Shown one piece after another: positions 2,308 through 58,274 of a DNA stretch of 64,000 nt (positions are counted from its first letter, which is position 1; every line of letters starts with the position of its first letter). Source of the stretch: an uncultured Candidatus Saccharibacteria bacterium (GTDB lineage Bacteria > Patescibacteriota > Minisyncoccia > Phycocordibacterales > UBA9973); contig CAYIBP010000002.1 of NCBI GenBank assembly GCA_964361705.1, positions 12,435-76,434 of the forward strand, in the 5' to 3' direction. The notes beneath the pieces were generated by a model. The model searched no databases and was not told the DNA's origin. It saw only the letters and a list, made by a program, of their open reading frames with translations. The position numbers and the translations under genes are program-made.

Positions 2308-2354
2308 AGTAGAAGTGTAGCAAATAATATTTTTTTGGCAATCACCAGTATTTT

Positions 2355-2377
2355 CCGTGAAGGACTGTCCTTCACGG
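2355..2377. other. Perfect 10-bp stem / 3-nt loop hairpin (ccgtgaagga-ctg-tccttcacgg) in the intergenic region. No clear U-tract.
   Basis: Palindrome read directly from the sequence. Confidence 0.35.
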
Positions 2378-2395
2378 AAATGGGAGAGGTGAGGT

Positions 2396-4905: not shown

Positions 4906-5787
4906 TTACAAGTTATTGAAAAGTTTCAATCTCGCCTCTGCTACTTTTTTTACAGCTTCTACTGCAGGAGCTAAAATTTTATAAGTCGTTATCTCGTTTG
5001 GATTTTCTTTCAAGAATTTCTCTAGAGCTTCTTTGTAGGCCAGACGGATTTCAGTACTAATATGAATGACAGATATTCCAGAAGATATTGCTGATGTAAA
5101 ATCTTCATCACGCAAACCAGACCCACCATGTAGTACTAGTGGCACACCTGCTGACTCTCGGATCTTTTTTACCAAAATTCCATCTATATGTGGTTCACCA
5201 CCCTTGACTATACCGTGAATGCTACCTACAGAAGGCGCTAATAAATCTATATCTGTCATCTGTACAAAATTTTTCGCGTCTTCTGGATCAGTCAGCGTAC
5301 CAGCGCCTTCTGGAATAGAATCTTTTATATTTGAACCCGATCCGATATAACCAATCTCCGCTTCCACTAATACATCTCGGTCGGTCGCATCTCTCAATGT
5401 CTTCACGTACCCTACACATTCTTTTGTTACTGCAACATTCTCCTCTAAAGAAAGCTTTGCCCCATCTATAATGACGGCATCAAATCCCGCATTTATACTC
5501 TGCTTTGTTCTTTCGAAACTATAATGATGATCTGCATTCAAAAAAATAGGATAATCATCCCTCTCACGTATTTCTTTAACCAACACCACCGCTTCTTCGC
5601 TACCAACAAAATCTTCTTCACCTTCAGACAAACCGATAATGACCGGTACTTTTTCACCAACCAACACGCTGACGGATTTTGCTGCTTCATAAACACCATG
5701 CAAGCCTTCTAAATTGGAAATATTAAAATGCCCAATCGCTACCTTCTTCTCCTCCGCTTCTTTTATGTATTCGCGTAATGTTTTCAT
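4906..5787 (-). CDS. fba: Class II fructose-bisphosphate aldolase
   Basis: HFNISNLEG, NADHH, AVIIDGAK and LVLHGGSG motifs of ketose-bisphosphate aldolase class II. Confidence 0.8.
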   Translation of the reverse strand: MKTLREYIKEAEEKKVAIGHFNISNLEGLHGVYEAAKSVSVLVGEKVPVIIGLSEGEEDFVGSEEAVVLVKEIRERDDYPIFLNADHHYSFERTKQSINAGFDAVIIDGAKLSLEENVAVTKECVGYVKTLRDATDRDVLVEAEIGYIGSGSNIKDSIPEGAGTLTDPEDAKNFVQMTDIDLLAPSVGSIHGIVKGGEPHIDGILVKKIRESAGVPLVLHGGSGLRDEDFTSAISSGISVIHISTEIRLAYKEALEKFLKENPNEITTYKILAPAVEAVKKVAEARLKLFNNL

Positions 5788-5801: not shown

Positions 5802-7274
5802 TTAACTTAGCACTTTCTTCAACATCTCTATCACCATTTTTGGATTCGCGCTGCCGTTGGATTCTTTGATAATTTTACCCACCAATGACATTATCGCATT
5901 TTCTTTGCCACTTTTATACACCGCCACAACATCAGGATTTTCGGTTATTGCTTTTTCAACCAAAATTTTAATAGAACTTTCATCTGAATTTTGAATAAGA
6001 TTTTCTTTTTCTAAAACTTCTTTTATATCTATCCTATCGTACACTAATCTTGGTATTAAATCTTTAGCAACTCTTGAAGAAATTTTACCATCTACAAACA
6101 TACGAACTAATATTGCAAAATCTGTCGCAAGAGGAAGCGAATGATTAGGTTCTTTTTTTAAAATTGCTTGCAAATCTGATAAAACAAAGTTCGCTATAGC
6201 TATCGCATATTTTGGGTTATAAGAATTTTCTTTTTTATCAAATAATTCATCAAAACATGACAGAGTTGCTTCAAATTCAAGGCATAACTTATCGTCTGCA
6301 ATCAAAACTTCAATATCTTCCTTTTTTATACCATAATTAAAAAAGCGTTCTCGTCTTTGGAAGGGCAATTCAGGCAATTCGCCTTTCATTTTTTCTAAAT
6401 CAAAAGCCTCGTGAAGCTTCATTTTAGGCAGGTCTGGCTCTGGAAAATATCTGTAATCTGCACTTCCTTCTTTTTTTCTCTGTGAGAAAGTTTTCTGCTT
6501 ACTTTCATCCCAACCTCTGGTTTCCTGTACTATTTCTGTGCCTTTGCCCTCTTCTAAGAGTTCACGCATTCTGTCTAGCTCGTACTTTATAGCTTTCTCT
6601 ACGCTCTTGAAAGAATTTAGATTTTTCACCTCAACTTTTGTGCCGAATTTTTTTGGATCATCTGTTATAGAAATATTCGCTTCCACTCGCATTTCACCTT
6701 TTTCCATATTGGCTTCTGATACCCCCAAATACCACAGTACGAACTGAAATTCTTTTGCAAATGCTGAAGTATTTTTCGAAGCATCCTCTGCACTGTCAAA
6801 GACACGCGCTTCTGTCACGAGCTCCATCAAAGGTACACCCGAGCGGTTGAAATCTATCAATGAATATCCTTCAGCGCCTTCGCCAAAATGTTTGTTGTTT
6901 GCCGTGTCTTCTTCTAAATGCACTCGAGTAATATCAAAACCCGCAAGATGTCCGCCGGAAACTATCGGATATTTGTATTGTGAAGTCTGGAAACCTTTTG
7001 GGATATCCGGATAAAAATAATTCTTGCGATCAAATTCTGTGAAGTCGGCAATAGTACCACCCACAGCTAGACCAACTTTGATCACATTTTCTACTGCCTT
7101 TTTGTTTATCACGGGCAAAGCGCCCGGATGCGCCATACACACAGGGCAAATATTTACGTTTGGATTTTCCTCGTCTGGATCATTCTTGCAAGAACAAAAC
7201 ATTTTGGTATTTGTCTTTAATTCAGCATGTATTTCAAGTCCTATGACGGGATAGTATTTTTTGTATTTTTCCAT
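5802..7274 (-). CDS. gatB: Asp/Glu-tRNA amidotransferase subunit B
   Basis: YYPVIGLEIHAELKT...MFCSC N-terminus and a GatB/YqeY C-terminal domain. Confidence 0.9.
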   Translation of the reverse strand: MEKYKKYYPVIGLEIHAELKTNTKMFCSCKNDPDEENPNVNICPVCMAHPGALPVINKKAVENVIKVGLAVGGTIADFTEFDRKNYFYPDIPKGFQTSQYKYPIVSGGHLAGFDITRVHLEEDTANNKHFGEGAEGYSLIDFNRSGVPLMELVTEARVFDSAEDASKNTSAFAKEFQFVLWYLGVSEANMEKGEMRVEANISITDDPKKFGTKVEVKNLNSFKSVEKAIKYELDRMRELLEEGKGTEIVQETRGWDESKQKTFSQRKKEGSADYRYFPEPDLPKMKLHEAFDLEKMKGELPELPFQRRERFFNYGIKKEDIEVLIADDKLCLEFEATLSCFDELFDKKENSYNPKYAIAIANFVLSDLQAILKKEPNHSLPLATDFAILVRMFVDGKISSRVAKDLIPRLVYDRIDIKEVLEKENLIQNSDESSIKILVEKAITENPDVVAVYKSGKENAIMSLVGKIIKESNGSANPKMVIEMLKKVLS

Positions 7275-15677: not shown

Positions 15678-15920
15678 TTCATTATTATTACACAGTTTTG
15701 TGTCTTTATGCTATTATTAAGCTTACAAATAAATAAGCGACCTAACCCCTTAAGATTTCTTGAGGATATGGTCAAAAGACCCATAGAAGATACTGAACCC
15801 TACGTTCAGCAACTCTTCTATGGGCTATACAGGGAAACTTGTATAGGGTCGTAAGACCTAGCTGGCGTGGGGTTCTGTGCTTCTCACTGCTAGCCATTAT
15901 CAGCTAGCTTTTTATTTTCT

Positions 15921-23343: not shown

Positions 23344-23832
23344 TCATTCTAAATAACTACTAAACCATATAGCATGACAAGTATACCCACCCGGATTCTT
23401 TTGTAAATAATCCTGATGATAATCTTCGGCCTCGTAAAATCTAGTAAAGGGTTCGAGTGTGGTCACTACAGGGTTTGACCAGCGTTTGCTATCATTGACT
23501 ATTTTTATAAAATCTTCGGCTTCTTTTCTTTCTTGTTCGTTTGCGTAAAATACCGCCGAACGATATGAAGTACCACGGTCATTACCTTGTTGATTTAGCG
23601 TAGTAGGGTTGTGTATTTGAAAAAAGAAATCTAAAAGTTTCTTGTATGAAGTTTTCGTATCGTCATACGATATCTCTACCGCTTCTGCATGACCTTCGTG
23701 ATTTTCATAAGTCGGATTTTCAATACTACCACCTGTATATCCTACGCGCGTTTTTACAACACCATACTGACTCCTGATCAAATCTTGTAAACCCCAAAAA
23801 CATCCTCCTGCAAATATTGCTTTTTTTAACAT
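23344..23832 (-). CDS. msrA: Peptide methionine sulfoxide reductase MsrA
   Basis: [10 protein letters not shown] active-site motif. Confidence 0.9.
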
Positions 23833-23884
23833 AATTTTATATCTATAATCTCTGAATTACAAAATTTCAAAAAATTTAGAAAAT

Positions 23885-23957
23885 ATGCCCATAGGATTCT
23901 TCGCTACGACCACAGAGCACTTGCCCTTCCAGGACTTGTGAGAACGACAGTGGGCAT
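23885..23957 (-). other. Conserved ~73-nt structured intergenic element, copy A (between murF and msrA). Family member with 57626-57699.
   Basis: Shares the cores TTCGCTAC, ACTTGCCCTTCCAGGAC and GAACGAC with copy B. The outer 7-bp stem ATGCCCA/TGGGCAT covaries with ATTCTC/GAGAAT in copy B. U-rich flanks. Confidence 0.4.
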
Positions 23958-24072
23958 GTTTTTAAATTTTTTGGGGTTTTGTAATTCAGAGTATAATATG
24001 TTATCTTTTAATTCGGAATTAACGTGAACATCAAAGAGTAGTTGATCGCATAGTGTGAAAACTACTCTTTTT

Positions 24073-25374
24073 TTATTTCTTTTTCAACCACTCTTCATCC
24101 TGACGCACTAGAAGCTTGGATTTGTTTTTTTTGTTTGTTGGTGAAAGTATTGCTTCTACGGCGCGTTCCATGCGGACGCCTTGCGAACCTTTAATCAAAA
24201 CAAAATCCCCTTCTGATACGAAGGTCTTTAAAAACTTTCCAGCTTCAGTTGAATTTAAAAATTCAAAAATATTCTTATTCTTCATACCCCTATCCAGTGC
24301 GCCTTCTTTTATCTTCTGCGCCCTAGGTCCCACAACCACGAGAATATTCACATTTTCTTTTGCAACCTTGCCCATATCTCTATGCGACTCTTCTGTGTGC
24401 TTGCCGAGTTCAAGCATATCTCCGAGTACTGCTATCTTGCGACCTGTAGTTTTGATCTCGCCTAAAGTTCTAAGCGCTGATTCACAAGCAAAAGGAGAAG
24501 AATTATAGGTATCATCTATTATAAAAGATTTATTGATTCCTTTTAAAAGTCTCATCCTTCCAACTGGAACACTATAGTCTTTGAGCCTATCAACAGCATC
24601 AACGATATTCCATTTTAAAGCATGAGCAAGAGCAAGCGCTCCAAAAGATGCATAAATATGGTTCCTGCCAAAAACCCCTTCTACTATCACAGGCAAACTA
24701 CTGCCATTTTGATCAATTCTAAAAACTATCCCTTCAGGTACTCCTTTTTTATTATAAAAAATATTTTCCTCGGAACCTCTAATATCAGAATCCTCTTTGA
24801 ATCCAAAAGTGACTATCCTGTTTTTTGTTTTTGAACTCATCTCTCTTACCGCTTCATCGTCATTGTTTAAAATTAAAACACCATCGCTCTTCAAAGTTTT
24901 TATAAGAGTACTTTTTTCTTCTATCAAATGTTTGCGGGAATCAAAAAATTCTATATGCGCTGGAGTAGAACCGATAGTAGTAATAATCACAACATCTGTT
25001 TTAAGCCATAACGCTGTAGCTTTCATGTCTCCGGGTTTACCCACTCCGACTTCAAGCACAAGCCATTTTGGATATTTATGTGGCCAAAGAAAAAGCCATA
25101 GACCTTTAAAAATATTTGATATCCAAACTAAAGGATTATTCCAACCATTCGGACATCCAAGTATCGTAAGAGGCAATCCTATCTGGCTGTTGTAACTCTT
25201 TTCACTTTTACGCACATAAGATACTCCACTGACCACGGCATACACAGCGTCTTTGGTAGAAGTCTTGCCTACTGATCCGGTAATAGCCACGATTTTTGGT
25301 TTGTATTTGGCAAGCACAAGCTCACACTCCAAACGCAATATATACGCTACTATTTTTCTAAAAAGCGTTTTCAT
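24073..25374 (-). CDS. murF: UDP-MurNAc-tripeptide--D-Ala-D-Ala ligase
   Basis: AITGSVGKTSTKD P-loop, Mur ligase middle and C-terminal domains. Confidence 0.85.
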   Translation of the reverse strand: MKTLFRKIVAYILRLECELVLAKYKPKIVAITGSVGKTSTKDAVYAVVSGVSYVRKSEKSYNSQIGLPLTILGCPNGWNNPLVWISNIFKGLWLFLWPHKYPKWLVLEVGVGKPGDMKATALWLKTDVVIITTIGSTPAHIEFFDSRKHLIEEKSTLIKTLKSDGVLILNNDDEAVREMSSKTKNRIVTFGFKEDSDIRGSEENIFYNKKGVPEGIVFRIDQNGSSLPVIVEGVFGRNHIYASFGALALAHALKWNIVDAVDRLKDYSVPVGRMRLLKGINKSFIIDDTYNSSPFACESALRTLGEIKTTGRKIAVLGDMLELGKHTEESHRDMGKVAKENVNILVVVGPRAQKIKEGALDRGMKNKNIFEFLNSTEAGKFLKTFVSEGDFVLIKGSQGVRMERAVEAILSPTNKKNKSKLLVRQDEEWLKKK

Positions 25375-36071: not shown

Positions 36072-36106
36072 CAGCCGTAACATTTCCCCCGGAAATGTTA
36101 CGGCTG
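36072..36106. terminator. Perfect 16-bp stem / 3-nt loop hairpin. It is followed by a T-run on the minus strand (gttgtttttt), so it is terminator-like for minus-strand transcripts and only weakly so for trxB.
   Basis: cagccgtaacatttcc-ccc-ggaaatgttacggctg. Confidence 0.5.
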
Positions 36107-36358
36107 TAAATCAAAGCGATTGTGCACGGAAACGCTCCCTCTCCTTGCGCTTTTCCTTTCTTGTTTGCTTGTTTCCCGAAGCAAGACGCGGCTGAGCGAA
36201 AATCGGCGTCGGCCTTTTTTTCCTCCCCGTCAAAACAACTTTTGTTTTTTTTGGCGTTTGCCTTTTTTCTTTTTTTCCCCTCTTCTCCCTTCTTTTTTTG
36301 CCCAGCCACAGGCAAGAAAAATATAAGGCAAGAAATGGGGAGACAAGAATAAAAACCA
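36107..36358. repeat. 250-bp strand-skewed low-complexity tract: polypyrimidine on +, purine-rich on -. GC content is higher than the surrounding sequence.
   Basis: Overlapping K/R-rich ORFs in several frames on both strands, typical of compositional bias. One minus-strand frame (from ATG 36427) has a strong SD, AAAGGAGGGAAAAATG. Confidence 0.5.
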
Positions 36359-36396
36359 CTAGGAGGCATCGCTGCTATGACAGCGATGCCTCCTAG
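36359..36396 (-). terminator. Perfect 16-bp stem / 6-nt loop hairpin followed on the minus strand by TGGTTTTTATT. Intrinsic terminator for the 36511-36771 gene.
   Basis: ctaggaggcatcgctg-ctatga-cagcgatgcctcctag. Confidence 0.5.
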
Positions 36397-36510
36397 TATT
36401 AACATGAACAAAATTTCTTTTTTCATTTTTCCCTCCTTTGGGGAAAAGTGAACAACCAAAAAAAACGGATTTATTTCACATTAACACATATAGAATATAT
36501 ATCAAATTTC

Positions 36511-41119: not shown

Positions 41120-41186
41120 ATTTTTTTTATAATCCTGTATCGCGCACAAAAAATAAAATTCAAAAAAACCTGTATAAAATAAAATA

Positions 41187-41219
41187 AGCCGAGTCAACGC
41201 TACGCTGACTCGGCTTTTC
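41187..41219 (+). terminator. Intrinsic terminator (agccgagtca-acgctacgc-tgactcggct + TTTT) downstream of tRNA-Val
   Basis: Read directly from the sequence. Confidence 0.6.
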
Positions 41220-54724: not shown

Positions 54725-57598
54725 TTAATACAAAATGTTGATAACTCTATTCTTTACATAAATTATCTTTTTCGGATTCGAACCTCCTAAATACTTTAAG
54801 ACAGCAGCATTCATCAAAGCTTTCTTTTTTACATCATCTTCACTATCATCAGCAGAAATAACCAACTCACCGCGAGCTTTGCCATTCATTTGTATTGCAA
54901 TCTTAATTTCATCGTCTTTTATTAAACTCTCTTCCCATTTTGGCCAACCGGAAAGATGAATACTTTTCTTTTCACCAAGATTAAGCCATACATACTCTGC
55001 GATATGCGGAGCAAATGGCGCAAGTATCTGCATGAATTTTTTCAAATCTTCTCTATTCACGCTGTGGCCTTTGATAAAAGAAGACTCCATCTCTGTCGCC
55101 AGAATCATCATCGCGGAAATAGCCGTATTAAAACGCATATTTTCGATATCTTCTGAAACTTTTTTTATAGTTTTATGCAGAATTTTTGTAAGAGTACTTG
55201 GCGAAGGATTTTTATCTTCATTACCCTTTTGGCTGATTCTCCAAACCTTTTCTATAAACCTCCTTGATCCGATGATACTATCCATACTCCAAGCCACTGC
55301 ATCTTCGAACGGACCCATAAACATCTCGTATACGCGCAAAGTATCTGCACCGTAAGTTTTTACAATACTGTCAGGATTCACCACATTGCCTATGGATTTA
55401 GACATCTTTATTCCGCCTTCGCCCAATATCATACCGTGCGAAGTACGCTTTGCATAAGGTTCGGCTTGTGGTACGAGTTTTAAATCATATAAAAATTTAT
55501 GCCAAAAACGAGAATACAAAAGGTGTAAAGTCGTGTGTTCCATACCGCCGTTGTACCAATTTACCCCGCCGTGGCGTGGGTCGCTTCCAAGCCAGTATTT
55601 TAGATTTTTCTTGCTTGCAAATTCTTTACTATTTTTTGGATCAGTGTAACGCAAATAGTACCAAGAACTTCCCGCCCAGTTTGGCATAGTGTCTGTTTCC
55701 CTTTTGGCCTTGCCTTTGCATTTTGGACATTTTACATTTACCCACTTTGCAATACTTGCCAATGGCGACTCCCCTGTGTCTGTAGGTTTGTAACTTTTCA
55801 CATCTGGCAACTTTACCGGTAGATCTTTTTCTGGCACTGGCACGAGCCCGCATTTTTCACAATTCACGAGCGGTATCGGCTCACCCCAGTATCTCTGTCT
55901 GGAAAATATCCAGTCACGAAGTTTGAATTTTGTAACAATCTTGCCGCCCACAAATTTTGTGATTTCCTTTTTGGCTTGCTCACTAGTTAATCCATCAAAC
56001 TTTCCGGAATTTATTAATACACCTTCTTGAGTGATGCAGTGTGTTTTATTTTTAAACAACTTCCACAACTCTTGACCTTCACCATGATCTAAAAAACTAT
56101 CCAGCTCACTTTCTGTAAGCCACACCACCTCGTGTTTCATTTTTTCTTCGTTAGATACGCCAACATTTTCATTGTTTTCTAATTTGAAATGCAAACCTTG
56201 AAAATGAGCAAATCTGTTTTCATTTTTATGGGGTGCCCAAAATTTAGCATGCATTTTACCACCTATATATTTTATAAATTTAACATTCTTAAAACCAGTC
56301 TCTTCGAGAATTTCTCGCATTCCTGCGGTGACATAATCTTGCCCATCTGTGCCACCAACAACAAAACTACGCCAACTCTGTTTTTTCCATTTTAAACCAA
56401 TATATTTTTTTTCTTTCCAATGTTCCACGATACACATAGAAACATCTCTTTCTATAAATGGCTCATCTTCGTGTATCTTGTCCGGACCACTTGTATCTAC
56501 CCATACAGGTTCTATGACATCCCTTATTTCAATATTATATTTTTTTGCAAATGCACCATCTCGATCATCATGCGCGGGCACGGCCATTATCGCGCCGGTG
56601 CCGTATTCTGCCAATACATAGTCGGCTATGAACACAGGTATCTCTTCCTGACTTGCAGGATTTATGGCTTTGATACCTTTCAATTCCACACCCGTTTTTT
56701 CTTTTTCATCTGAAGTACGTTCGACTTCTGATTTCTTTTTTGTTTTTACTATATATTCATCTACCTCTTTTTTATTTTTTATTTTATCTCCAAGAGTTTC
56801 AACCAAGGGATGCTCTGGTGCCAAAACCATATATGTCGAACCAAAAATAGTATCAGCACGGGTAGTAAAAACTCTTATTTTCTTGTCTGAGTTTTTTAAA
56901 GAAAATTCAATTTCTGAACCTTCGGACCTCCCTATCCAATTCCTCTGCTGTATTTTTACCCGTTCTGGATAATCCACTGTGTCCAGATCTTTATCTAGTC
57001 TATCTGCGTATTTTGTGATGGCTAGTATCCATTGTTCTTTTTCTCTTTTTTCTGTCTGCCCGCCACAACGCTCGCACACTCCACCTATGGCTTCTTCATT
57101 TGCCAAACCAATCTTGCAAGAAGGACACCAATTAATAAAAGATTTTGCTTTGTACGCCAAACCCTTTTTGAAAAATTGTAAGAATATCCACTGTGTCCAT
57201 TTGTAATATTTTGGATCGGTAGTATTTATCTCGCGAGACCAGTCAAAAGAAAAACCCACAGACTTCAACTGTCTTCTAAAAGTATCTGTATTTTGTTTCG
57301 TCACCAAAGCTGGCTTTTTGCCTGTCTTTATAGCATAGTTTTCTGTCGGCAATCCGAAAGCGTCCCAACCTATAGGATACAAGACATTGCATCCTTCCAT
57401 GCGACGCTTTCTGGATATAATATCCATCGCTGCATAACTGCGAATATGTCCAGTATGTAGCCCTGCACCTGAAGGATAAGGAAACTCTACCAAAGGAAAG
57501 AATTTCTTACCCTTGCCATCAAGAGCTTTGTATAAATTTTTCTTCTCCCAATCTTTCTGCAATTTGCCTTCTATTTTCTTGTGATCGTAGTTTTTCAT
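54725..57598 (-). CDS. leuS: Leucine--tRNA ligase
   Basis: HIGH region HTGHIRSY, KMSKS and the CP1 editing domain. 957 aa. Confidence 0.95.
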   Translation of the reverse strand: MKNYDHKKIEGKLQKDWEKKNLYKALDGKGKKFFPLVEFPYPSGAGLHTGHIRSYAAMDIISRKRRMEGCNVLYPIGWDAFGLPTENYAIKTGKKPALVTKQNTDTFRRQLKSVGFSFDWSREINTTDPKYYKWTQWIFLQFFKKGLAYKAKSFINWCPSCKIGLANEEAIGGVCERCGGQTEKREKEQWILAITKYADRLDKDLDTVDYPERVKIQQRNWIGRSEGSEIEFSLKNSDKKIRVFTTRADTIFGSTYMVLAPEHPLVETLGDKIKNKKEVDEYIVKTKKKSEVERTSDEKEKTGVELKGIKAINPASQEEIPVFIADYVLAEYGTGAIMAVPAHDDRDGAFAKKYNIEIRDVIEPVWVDTSGPDKIHEDEPFIERDVSMCIVEHWKEKKYIGLKWKKQSWRSFVVGGTDGQDYVTAGMREILEETGFKNVKFIKYIGGKMHAKFWAPHKNENRFAHFQGLHFKLENNENVGVSNEEKMKHEVVWLTESELDSFLDHGEGQELWKLFKNKTHCITQEGVLINSGKFDGLTSEQAKKEITKFVGGKIVTKFKLRDWIFSRQRYWGEPIPLVNCEKCGLVPVPEKDLPVKLPDVKSYKPTDTGESPLASIAKWVNVKCPKCKGKAKRETDTMPNWAGSSWYYLRYTDPKNSKEFASKKNLKYWLGSDPRHGGVNWYNGGMEHTTLHLLYSRFWHKFLYDLKLVPQAEPYAKRTSHGMILGEGGIKMSKSIGNVVNPDSIVKTYGADTLRVYEMFMGPFEDAVAWSMDSIIGSRRFIEKVWRISQKGNEDKNPSPSTLTKILHKTIKKVSEDIENMRFNTAISAMMILATEMESSFIKGHSVNREDLKKFMQILAPFAPHIAEYVWLNLGEKKSIHLSGWPKWEESLIKDDEIKIAIQMNGKARGELVISADDSEDDVKKKALMNAAVLKYLGGSNPKKIIYVKNRVINILY

Positions 57599-57625
57599 AA
57601 ATTAGTATTTTTTAAGAATCAAAAT

Positions 57626-57699
57626 ATTCTCGTAGGAGTATTCGCTACTGACAGATAGGACTTGCCCTTCCAAGACAGAGTGCGAACGACGGAGAGAAT
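57626..57699 (-). other. Conserved ~74-nt structured element, copy B, in the leuS 5' region. Family member with 23885-23957.
   Basis: Shares the ACTTGCCCTTCCAAGAC, TTCGCTAC and GAACGAC cores with copy A. Terminal stem ATTCTC/GAGAAT. Confidence 0.4.
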
Positions 57700-57710
57700 G
57701 ATTTTAATTT

Positions 57711-58274
57711 TTATTGCTTTCCAAATTTCTTCACAGCAAGCCAGATGAGCGCCACGAGGGCAAGAGCGAGAATTATAACTTTTACCAAATTATCAGCAGA
57801 TGACCAATATCTGACAGAAGCAATAATGAGAGATAGCACACCACCCCAAGAAAGCCCTAATGTTAGTATTTCATTTGTTAAAAATGATCCAATAGCCAAA
57901 GACAAAACACCGAGCACTACAAGCATGATGAATATATTTCTTTCATAACTCTGTCTTGCTTTGTCGTATTCCTGTCTCTTTGTAAAATCTCTGTCACAGT
58001 AATCTCCTGGCTGAGGAACTTCTTGCCCATCTATAAGTTTGTAATATCTGGTATTCTCTACCCACTGTCCGCCGACATCGAGACATTCAGATTTGGTTTT
58101 TATCTCTTCCACTACTTGCTGTTGCGGAAAATAGCCATCATAACTAGGAGCTTTGTAAAAAAGCGAAATTGTGTAATTAAAGAAAAGATTAAGCACAACC
58201 ACCATACCTATAATAAGAGCCCATTTGAGAACCTTTGGTTTATTTGTTTCCATATTGGAGAGATTATAGCACAT
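57711..58274 (-). CDS. Hypothetical membrane protein (N- and C-terminal TM helices)
   Basis: 187-aa ORF. Confidence 0.4.
   Translation of the reverse strand: MCYNLSNMETNKPKVLKWALIIGMVVVLNLFFNYTISLFYKAPSYDGYFPQQQVVEEIKTKSECLDVGGQWVENTRYYKLIDGQEVPQPGDYCDRDFTKRQEYDKARQSYERNIFIMLVVLGVLSLAIGSFLTNEILTLGLSWGGVLSLIIASVRYWSSADNLVKVIILALALVALIWLAVKKFGKQ

Follow-up and report, generated by a model that had tools for sequence, protein, structure and literature searches.

In-frame coding palindromes are so far known mainly from Rickettsia, of which they have been treated as a peculiarity. The Rickettsia palindromic elements (RPEs; Ogata et al. 2000, 2002), as portrayed in the accounts drawn upon here, are palindromic repeats that reside both in spacers and, in frame, within open reading frames (ORFs) (PMC10969869; PMC1166351), and the latter account gives 728 RPEs for R. 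felis. MITEs, such as Correia, ERIC, RUP and BOX, are small non-autonomous hairpin repeats that can be co-transcribed and may also be found within ORFs (review PMC10969869). REPs are hairpin repeats of 20-40 nt, extragenic and high in copy number, with a GTAG motif at the foot of the hairpin, and the attC sites of integrons are recognisable by their structure, their stems varying in sequence and yet remaining complementary, with conserved R''/R' boxes at the foot of the stem, a variable centre and a cassette context. For CPR bacteria, our literature search turned up no description of comparable elements.

Here we analyze a 64,000-nucleotide stretch of DNA, referred to throughout as the window, in which a preliminary description had noticed two short, similar elements and had read them either as a lineage-specific RNA that regulates msrA and leuS in cis, as an attenuator or a processing site, or as a REP/MITE-like repeat. 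Comparison with related genomes points to a family of palindromic (hairpin) insertion elements, low in copy number, in Paceibacteria-type Patescibacteria (CPR), to which the two window elements probably belong as intergenic members.

Two homologous elements in the window

The two elements, designated copy A and copy B, are homologous sequences of 73 and 74 nt on the minus strand (Table 1), and both coordinates and gene context agree with the preliminary description, which had placed them between genes, upstream of msrA and leuS. Copy A is flanked by a Mur-ligase gene and by msrA (Pfam PMSR), and copy B by the ORF of a 187-aa membrane protein and by leuS, lying 12 nt past the stop of the former and 27 nt ahead of the start of the latter. 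Read on the minus strand, as the reverse complements of the + strand blocks originally listed, the two copies have in common GTCGTTC.CAC, TGGAAGGGCAAGT, GTAGCGAA and TCCTA, in equal order and with equal spacing save for one 1-nt indel. The 13-mer TGGAAGGGCAAGT occurs exactly twice in the 64-kb window, once in each element, which bears out the common internal blocks reported at the outset. The closing stems differ between the copies and are complementary within each, ATTTT follows both elements on the minus strand, in keeping with the T tracts noted on their 3' side, and in both copies an inverted-repeat search shows the stems running outward beyond the segments first delimited. The arms of this inverted repeat span ~23850-23891 and 23951-23991 in copy A (82-88% complementary), and 57614-57631 and 57694-57711 in copy B (72% complementary). 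The covariance model of the family recovers only copies B and A in the window, and its next match there, at 23.6 bits, is a generic hairpin.

Copy A is the most degenerate member of the family, with TTCTC in place of TTCGC and 17-27 differences between its core and every other core, and its 1-nt deletion breaks the reading frame that is usual in the family. In copy B this frame is open and yields the peptide NHSLRRSHSVLEGQVLSVSSEYSYENILILKKY, and because stop codons precede the open frame the copy is not part of the upstream gene. Taken alone, the 73-nt cores fold no better than shuffled sequence on either strand (z -0.4 to -0.9); the stable, covarying part of the element is its outer stem, and not the core by itself. 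Inside the ORF upstream of copy B, at 57757-57773 (-), lies the series ATTCTCG-CT-CTTGCCCT, complementary, in matching order, to two segments of copy B situated 60-130 nt downstream, AGGGCAAG and CGAGAAT; this complementarity is probably due to chance, the other reading being an alternative pairing.

Table 1. Coordinates of the elements, their neighbors and other hairpins in the window and in related loci (window positions unless a locus is given)
Feature	Position	Strand	Description
Copy A, conserved core	23885-23957	-	P1 ATGCCCA/TGGGCAT, degenerate P2 TTCTC/GCGAA, apical CTGGAAGGGCAAG; covariance-model match 23869-23975, 73.6 bits
Copy A, outer stem, 3' arm (minus-strand reading)	23850-23884	-	...ATTTTCTAAATTTTTTGAAATTTTGTAATTCAGAG; inverted repeat
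Copy A, outer stem, 5' arm (minus-strand reading)	23958-23991	-	CTCTGAATTACAAAACCCCAAAAAATTTAAAAAC; inverted repeat
msrA	23344-23832	-	
Mur-ligase gene	24073-25374	-	
Copy B, conserved core	57626-57699	-	P1 ATTCTC/GAGAAT, P2 GTTCGC/GCGAA..C, apical CTTGGAAGGGCAAG; covariance-model match 57611-57717, 98.6 bits
Copy B, outer stem, 3' arm (minus-strand reading)	57614-57625	-	A/T-rich; inverted repeat
Copy B, outer stem, 5' arm (minus-strand reading)	57700-57711	-	A/T-rich; reaches the stop codon of the upstream ORF
leuS	54725-57598	-	
Membrane-protein ORF	57711-58274	-	
LOOT RNA motif (RF03000)	15739-15859	+	full-length match, 82.4 bits (gathering score 46.4)
Perfect hairpin	36072-36106		16 bp, 3-nt loop
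Perfect hairpin	36358-36397		17 bp, 6-nt loop
Spacer hairpin	2352-2380		near-perfect, 14 bp
Spacer hairpin	41186-41216		near-perfect, 14 bp; just past tRNA-Val
Second family, PolA linker	L016:3278-3406		in frame
Second family, PolA linker	L018:3427-3558		in frame
Second family, UvrC	L002:~5361-5490		in frame
Second family, LeuS of a close relative of the window	L025:5863-5970		opposite orientation
REP-like short palindromes, L026	2-24, 958-980, 1228-1250, 1441-1463, 11764-11774, 12052-12062		
REP-like short palindromes, L028	11751-11802, 17079-17127		

Rfam 15, with its T-box, riboswitch, SRP and tRNA families, returns nothing for the two copies at the gathering score and noise alone at E <= 10, in accordance with the initial impression that no known motif is matched. 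ARAGORN is negative at both copies for a tRNA or tRNA-like gene, and a scan for intrinsic terminators (short G+C-rich hairpin, small loop and T run) is negative at both sites, where the loop would be the core of ~60-70 nt and only four T directly follow the stem. Conceivable likenesses to an SRP-like GGAA loop, a K-turn, hairpin-ribozyme loops and 16S h21 were dropped for want of a supporting tool result.

Elsewhere, the window contains a LOOT RNA motif and several further hairpins (Table 1). The two perfect ones lie within an inter-ORF stretch of ~470 nt without a convincing gene and are the next-best, generic matches of the covariance model, on both strands, and the two spacer hairpins look like ordinary terminators. 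The LeuS protein (957 aa) carries a NUDIX domain (PF00293) inside the synthetase, as do almost all of its closest homologs, and some LeuS homologs of 1100-1350 aa have endonuclease-like domains (PF04480, PF18741) too.

LeuS homologs of 66-78% identity were located on contigs of four relatives (L025-L028), where the upstream DUF5671 gene ends 35, 11, 12 and 72 nt before leuS. Gaps of 11, 12 and 35 nt leave no room for the element upstream of leuS in three of these four relatives, and the covariance model detects no copy of the family anywhere in 75 kb of the four contigs. The element is hence absent at leuS in all four and is no conserved component of a leuS leader. The window copies are family members lying between co-directional genes, and not dedicated regulators of msrA or leuS; at most they may serve, incidentally, as intercistronic hairpins.

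Distribution of the family and its host genes

One genome per species was scanned with the pattern TGGAAGGGCAAGTN{8,20}GTAGCGAA, giving 14 loci of which two are chance matches. The remaining 12 true loci hold 13 copies, all of them in Patescibacteria MAGs labelled Nomurabacteria, Paceibacterota or 'Saccharibacteria'. A metagenome scan that permitted synonymous codons contributed four new copies, and a covariance model built from 19 sequences three more, which are diverged. Looking for further copies in related CPR genomes, with a covariance model among the means, had been proposed as a check in the preliminary description, and it thus yields 20 distinct copies outside the window, or 22 with the two window copies. 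Copy number is low, with two in the 64-kb window, one or two per fetched locus elsewhere and none in the 75 kb of the four relatives. When a UvrB fragment served as protein query, the only matches were short and incomplete UvrB calls in which the element is absent, and viral contigs gave no match to the element.

Long ORFs contain at least 19 of the 20 copies outside the window, in one constant orientation and reading frame (L013, a short locus, is not counted); among the copies of the genome scan, at least 12 of 13 are in a long ORF uninterrupted by stop codons, L013 being the exception. The peptide encoded by the intragenic copies is ...ALRRSHSILEGQVLSGSSEYSSEH..., and their open frames suggest that the inserts are translated within the host proteins. 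By Pfam, these hosts are UvrB, DNA polymerase A with its 5'-3' exonuclease, PolyA_pol+HD (CCA-adding type), RrnaAD (KsgA) and UvrA; the window itself has no uvrB, polA or cca gene. The element occupies two sites in UvrB, one after IRPTGLVDPE...RP (site 1) and another after PPETLLSYFP (site 2), and the linker that follows the 5' nuclease domain in DNA polymerase I, and it lies inside the ORF in UvrA, in the PolyA_pol+HD protein and in KsgA. Alignment with the solved UvrB 2fdc_A breaks exactly at the two sites and locates the UvrB insertions at the single-residue junctions 330/332 and 427/429.

Presence and absence at these sites differ between genomes. Site 1 of UvrB is empty in L014 (VSEKENYKGQ) and in L022 (VSEGENYPGQ); site 2 is empty in L002 and filled by a family element in L012, L014 and L030. 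In L009 a family element at site 1 coexists with a different hairpin at site 2, which is 62 nt long, near-perfect, in frame and devoid of the conserved core (oriented ORF codons 366-390), and site 1 of L012 holds yet another insert. Genomes of this clade have polA, uvrB, uvrA and uvrC next to one another, and the apparent preference for repair genes is therefore explainable by local copying. Two contigs traced from the UvrB-fragment search, L029 and L030, display the conserved repair cluster polA - uvrB - uvrA - uvrC - UDG - SpoU - fpg with genes fragmented as in error-rich long-read assemblies, and are for that reason uninformative on the reading frame.

Stem covariation and core conservation

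The complete element measures ~100-140 nt and is composed of a conserved core of ~70 nt on an outer stem of 15-20 bp. Within the core, P1, (A)TGCTC/GAGCA(T), leads through an asymmetric internal loop to P2, (G/A)TTCGC/GCGAA with a 2-nt bulge, and a second asymmetric loop leads from there to the apex, CTTG-GAAGGG-CAAG; TTCGC/GCGAA is almost invariant. Pair 31-80, which extends P2 across the 2-nt bulge, covaries (A-U in 10 sequences and G-C in 8), and some copies have extra pairs beyond the P2 bulge (GAA/TTC, GCA/TGC, GTGA/TCAC). In the 19-sequence alignment the outer stem comprises 20 bp, 19 of which have changes on both sides, and 89% of its cells are paired, as against 36-43% when the partners are slid. 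The sequence of this stem differs at every insertion site and its complementarity is kept. Covariation had first been argued from the two closing stems of the window, an argument that holds and gains much weight from the larger alignment, in which none of 500 shuffles reaches the observed score. As to which strand folds, the outer stem favors the antisense strand, since most of its mismatches, read on the sense strand, are A.C and not G.U, and in 14 of 19 copies folding is better for the antisense sequence; the inner helix 40-44/66-70, G-U-rich on the sense strand, favors the sense strand. Coding-strand composition could bias both results.

Part of the outer stem can belong to the host. At UvrB site 1 (L009, L018, L023) the 3' outer arm consists of the conserved host codons YPGQI and the 5' arm is their inverted complement, and the same holds at UvrB site 2 (L014, L012) for the host codons IPDFL; in L002 and L007, both outer arms consist of insert sequence. 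Inspection of the stem bases by eye revealed no target-site duplication and no conserved target motif in the fetched loci, nor was a parent insertion sequence (IS) seen in them.

The core is constrained at the nucleotide level, synonymous sites included. The metagenome pattern permitted the synonymous codons YTN GAR GGN CAR and returned only (T/C)TGGAAGGGCAAGT, always with GAA GGG CAA. In five UvrB site-1 orthologs, synonymous codons were compared at third positions between 108 flanking host codons and the core: 477 of 893 positions are identical in the flanks (0.53) and 132 of 150 in the core (0.88), or 75 of 93 (about 0.81) once an approximate set of codons forced by the search pattern is removed. 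With orthologous cores intact beside saturated synonymous sites, a host function fits at least as well as selfish persistence. Core differences per 71 nt average 15.8 between different sites of the same genome, 14.0 between genomes at the same site and 15.7 when both site and genome differ, and these distances give no sign of general concerted evolution or recent spread. The sole exception is the pair L004 and L011, whose cores, in UvrB and PolA respectively, differ by 1 nt, and this near-identity hints at occasional copying between genes.

Three of the six frames of the core consensus are open, and the intragenic copies all use the hydrophilic one. Given that the other sense frame reads VVRTLSWKGKFYLVV, the constant frame and orientation are explainable by what protein loops tolerate. 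A peptide-profile search of a set of 5.8 billion proteins gave three word candidates and zero matches, and the copy B peptide had zero matches among 1.84 billion representative proteins, a comparison to which a query of 33 aa lends little power.

A second hairpin family and Y1 transposase genes

A second family of coding hairpins combines site-specific outer stems with a conserved core of its own, ...AGGTCCTCGG.TCTC.GGGGCCCCG.ACCCC.GCCAGACC..., and has members in PolA, UvrC and LeuS (Table 1). This second family, together with the different hairpins found at the same sites, indicates that several families of coding hairpins reuse the same protein loops.

Solitary Y1_Tnp genes scoring above the Pfam cut-off are found in L006, L026 and L028, and the one in L006 adjoins the PolA gene that bears the element. 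The match of Y1_Tnp to the NCBIfam model of REP-associated tyrosine transposases is 52.7 bits, below the cut-off of 80. In these three loci the Y1 genes are flanked by other hairpins and not by the element studied here, and the window has no Y1 gene; the involvement of a RAYT-like Y1 transposase is a lead, not evidence. L026 contains five or more copies of the 23-nt palindrome ACTTGGAAGTC-N-GACTTCCAAGT, two inside the Y1 gene and one beside it, with more matches to its arm motif in leuS. Such REP-like palindromes of L026 and L028, including the relative CTTGGTAGTCGGAGTACC..., are located inside or beside the Y1-like gene and, in frame, in leuS. In L006, the same hairpin, AAAAATAAACAGGC/GCCTGTTTATTTTT, stands on both sides of the Y1 transposase-like gene (5125-5155 and 5817-5855), and could correspond to IS200-like ends or to bidirectional terminators.

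Discussion

The interpretation of the window elements as intergenic members of a palindromic insertion-element family builds on direct observation of family membership, in-frame intragenic location, presence/absence differences, stem covariation and nucleotide-level conservation of the core. The underlying process may be envisaged as follows. Element DNA would enter, or disappear from, intergenic spacers as well as the loops and linkers of essential genes, and survival inside genes would be limited to those copies that keep the frame open, which would consequently be read through as a hydrophilic stretch of ~30 aa (...RRSHSILEGQVLSGSSEYSSEH...). The mobile or copied unit might be the conserved core with P1, and the outer stem might be built or lengthened in place, with adjacent host sequence as one of its arms, through either fold-back template switching or selection for pairing. 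Fold-back template switching is known from quasi-palindrome mutagenesis, and the near-perfect stems that accompany lost or decayed cores fit with a templated process. A possible mobilizing enzyme would be a RAYT-like Y1 (HUH) transposase that works on hairpins of single-stranded DNA. Much more tentatively, we suggest that these elements could represent an undescribed type of CPR insertion. In this scheme, loops of essential genes would receive a copy of the conserved core (~70 nt) along with a new inverted copy of adjacent host sequence (a target-derived stem), whether through fold-back synthesis or through a Y1/HUH enzyme that recognizes hairpins in single-stranded form; the core would then come under nucleotide-level selection, possibly as an RNA or DNA signal of the host in the polA-uvrABC cluster.

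Several other explanations compete with insertion. The cis-regulatory role initially proposed for msrA and leuS would amount to a gene-specific leader RNA (attenuator, riboswitch or T-box-like), as might be expected from two copies placed just ahead of a gene start and followed by short T runs, but it is already contradicted by the data: at least 19 of 20 further homologs are intragenic, as are all of those with known context, and upstream of leuS the four relatives have no copy, three of them lacking the space for one. With no matching family in Rfam and neither copy called in the terminator scan, we regard this reading as extremely unlikely. Scarcely better placed is the notion that conservation concerns the peptide (...SHSILEGQV...SSEYSSEH...), as a functional module that several enzymes have acquired. 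Use of the same one of three open frames by all intragenic copies speaks for it, but tolerance of a hydrophilic peptide explains this constancy equally well, synonymous positions are conserved (GAA GGG CAA is invariably found where GAR GGN CAR was permitted), the window copies are not translated within a gene, copy A being frame-broken, and the protein search, weak as it is with so short a query, provides no match. A protein module is thus very unlikely.

A role for the core as a functional structured RNA deserves more consideration. Carried in the sense orientation in mRNAs, such a module could be a site for protein or RNase binding, or for cleavage, that co-regulates uvrA, uvrB and polA along with msrA and leuS of the window, the long stem serving to present its loops. 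Conservation at synonymous sites, the sense orientation of every copy of known context (those of the window included), the retention of orthologous copies across species with compensatory stem changes, the G-U richness of the inner helix on the sense strand and the enrichment of repair functions among hosts are all in its favor. Against this, the protein sites in question are vacant in close relatives or hold unrelated hairpins there, the repair bias could stem from local copying between neighboring genes, and a second hairpin family shares the architecture with another core and in both orientations; moreover, sense-strand mismatches of the outer stem are mostly A.C, the antisense strand generally folds better, Rfam is empty even at permissive E-values and the core alone has no unusual stability. 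We therefore see an RNA module as possible, yet doubtful. It could also be argued that the complementarity is not selected at all, arising from arm-to-arm templated correction (quasi-palindrome template switching), and that occasional copying between sites conserves a core without function. This would agree with outer stems that are near-perfect despite a lost or decayed core (UvrB site 2 of L009 and the LeuS inserts of L025, L027 and L028), with the host-coded arm and with the near-identical cores of L004 and L011 in different genes. Core divergence is, however, about equal within and between genomes, and correction of this kind accounts for the stems but leaves unexplained why unpaired core loops are conserved across species, which makes it improbable as a full account.

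The family is new for the phylum Patescibacteria, and suggests that hairpin DNA within essential genes is tolerated, or put to use, time and again in reduced genomes. Three of its features are unusual for bacterial repeats: site-specific stems that are in part host codons, a core conserved at synonymous sites and protein loops that are occupied repeatedly, by different families of hairpins. They make palindrome maintenance, template switching and a possible Y1-transposase activity directly testable. From a practical standpoint, the inserts lengthen UvrA, UvrB, UvrC, PolA and LeuS in CPR bacteria and can mislead annotation, alignments and phylogenies, and coding hairpins can likewise lead astray the search for regulatory RNAs, of which the initial interpretation of the window is an example.

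Comparison with known systems

Of the two repeat classes invoked in the preliminary description, the general idea holds, in that the element is a repeated palindromic insertion element, but the strict definitions of REPs and MITEs do not apply to it. With REPs and RAYTs it shares the hairpin-forming repeat, a GTAG motif (within GTAGCGAA) and the occurrence, in genomes of the same clade, of solitary Y1 (IS200-like) genes that weakly match the RAYT model, one relative (L026) having genuine REP-like palindromes of 23 nt within its Y1 gene and close to it. Unlike REPs, however, the CPR element is 100-140 nt long, low in copy number and mostly intragenic, bears GTAG inside the core and has no copy flanking a Y1 gene; size, GTAG position and copy number (two in 64 kb, none in 75 kb of relatives) all set it apart. 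Its likeness to MITEs lies in being a small hairpin-forming repeat able to sit in ORFs, but MITEs are defined by common terminal inverted repeats, target-site duplications and a parent IS, and the outer stems of the CPR element are unrelated between sites, so that no common terminal inverted repeats exist. Like attC sites, it is recognizable by structure, with stems that change in sequence and stay complementary. The architecture is nonetheless reversed with respect to attC, the center being conserved and the base variable, and its copies lie inside housekeeping genes, without integron context, which argues against membership in that class.

The closest parallel is provided by the RPEs, although the two systems differ in several respects. 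The CPR element is far lower in copy number, it conserves the apical core only, on an outer stem that is site-specific and partly made of host codons, and this core is conserved across species at synonymous sites. As the hosts are Patescibacteria, a different phylum, common descent with the elements of Rickettsia is unlikely, and the likeness is here one of behavior. It is nevertheless an extensive one. In both cases, a bacterium with a reduced genome harbors palindromic repeats of ~100-150 bp, established here by 22 copies with covariation, which invade intergenic regions and the ORFs of unrelated housekeeping genes alike; the copies inside genes keep the frame and provide the host protein with a conserved peptide where its fold can tolerate one, and several families of such repeats exist side by side.
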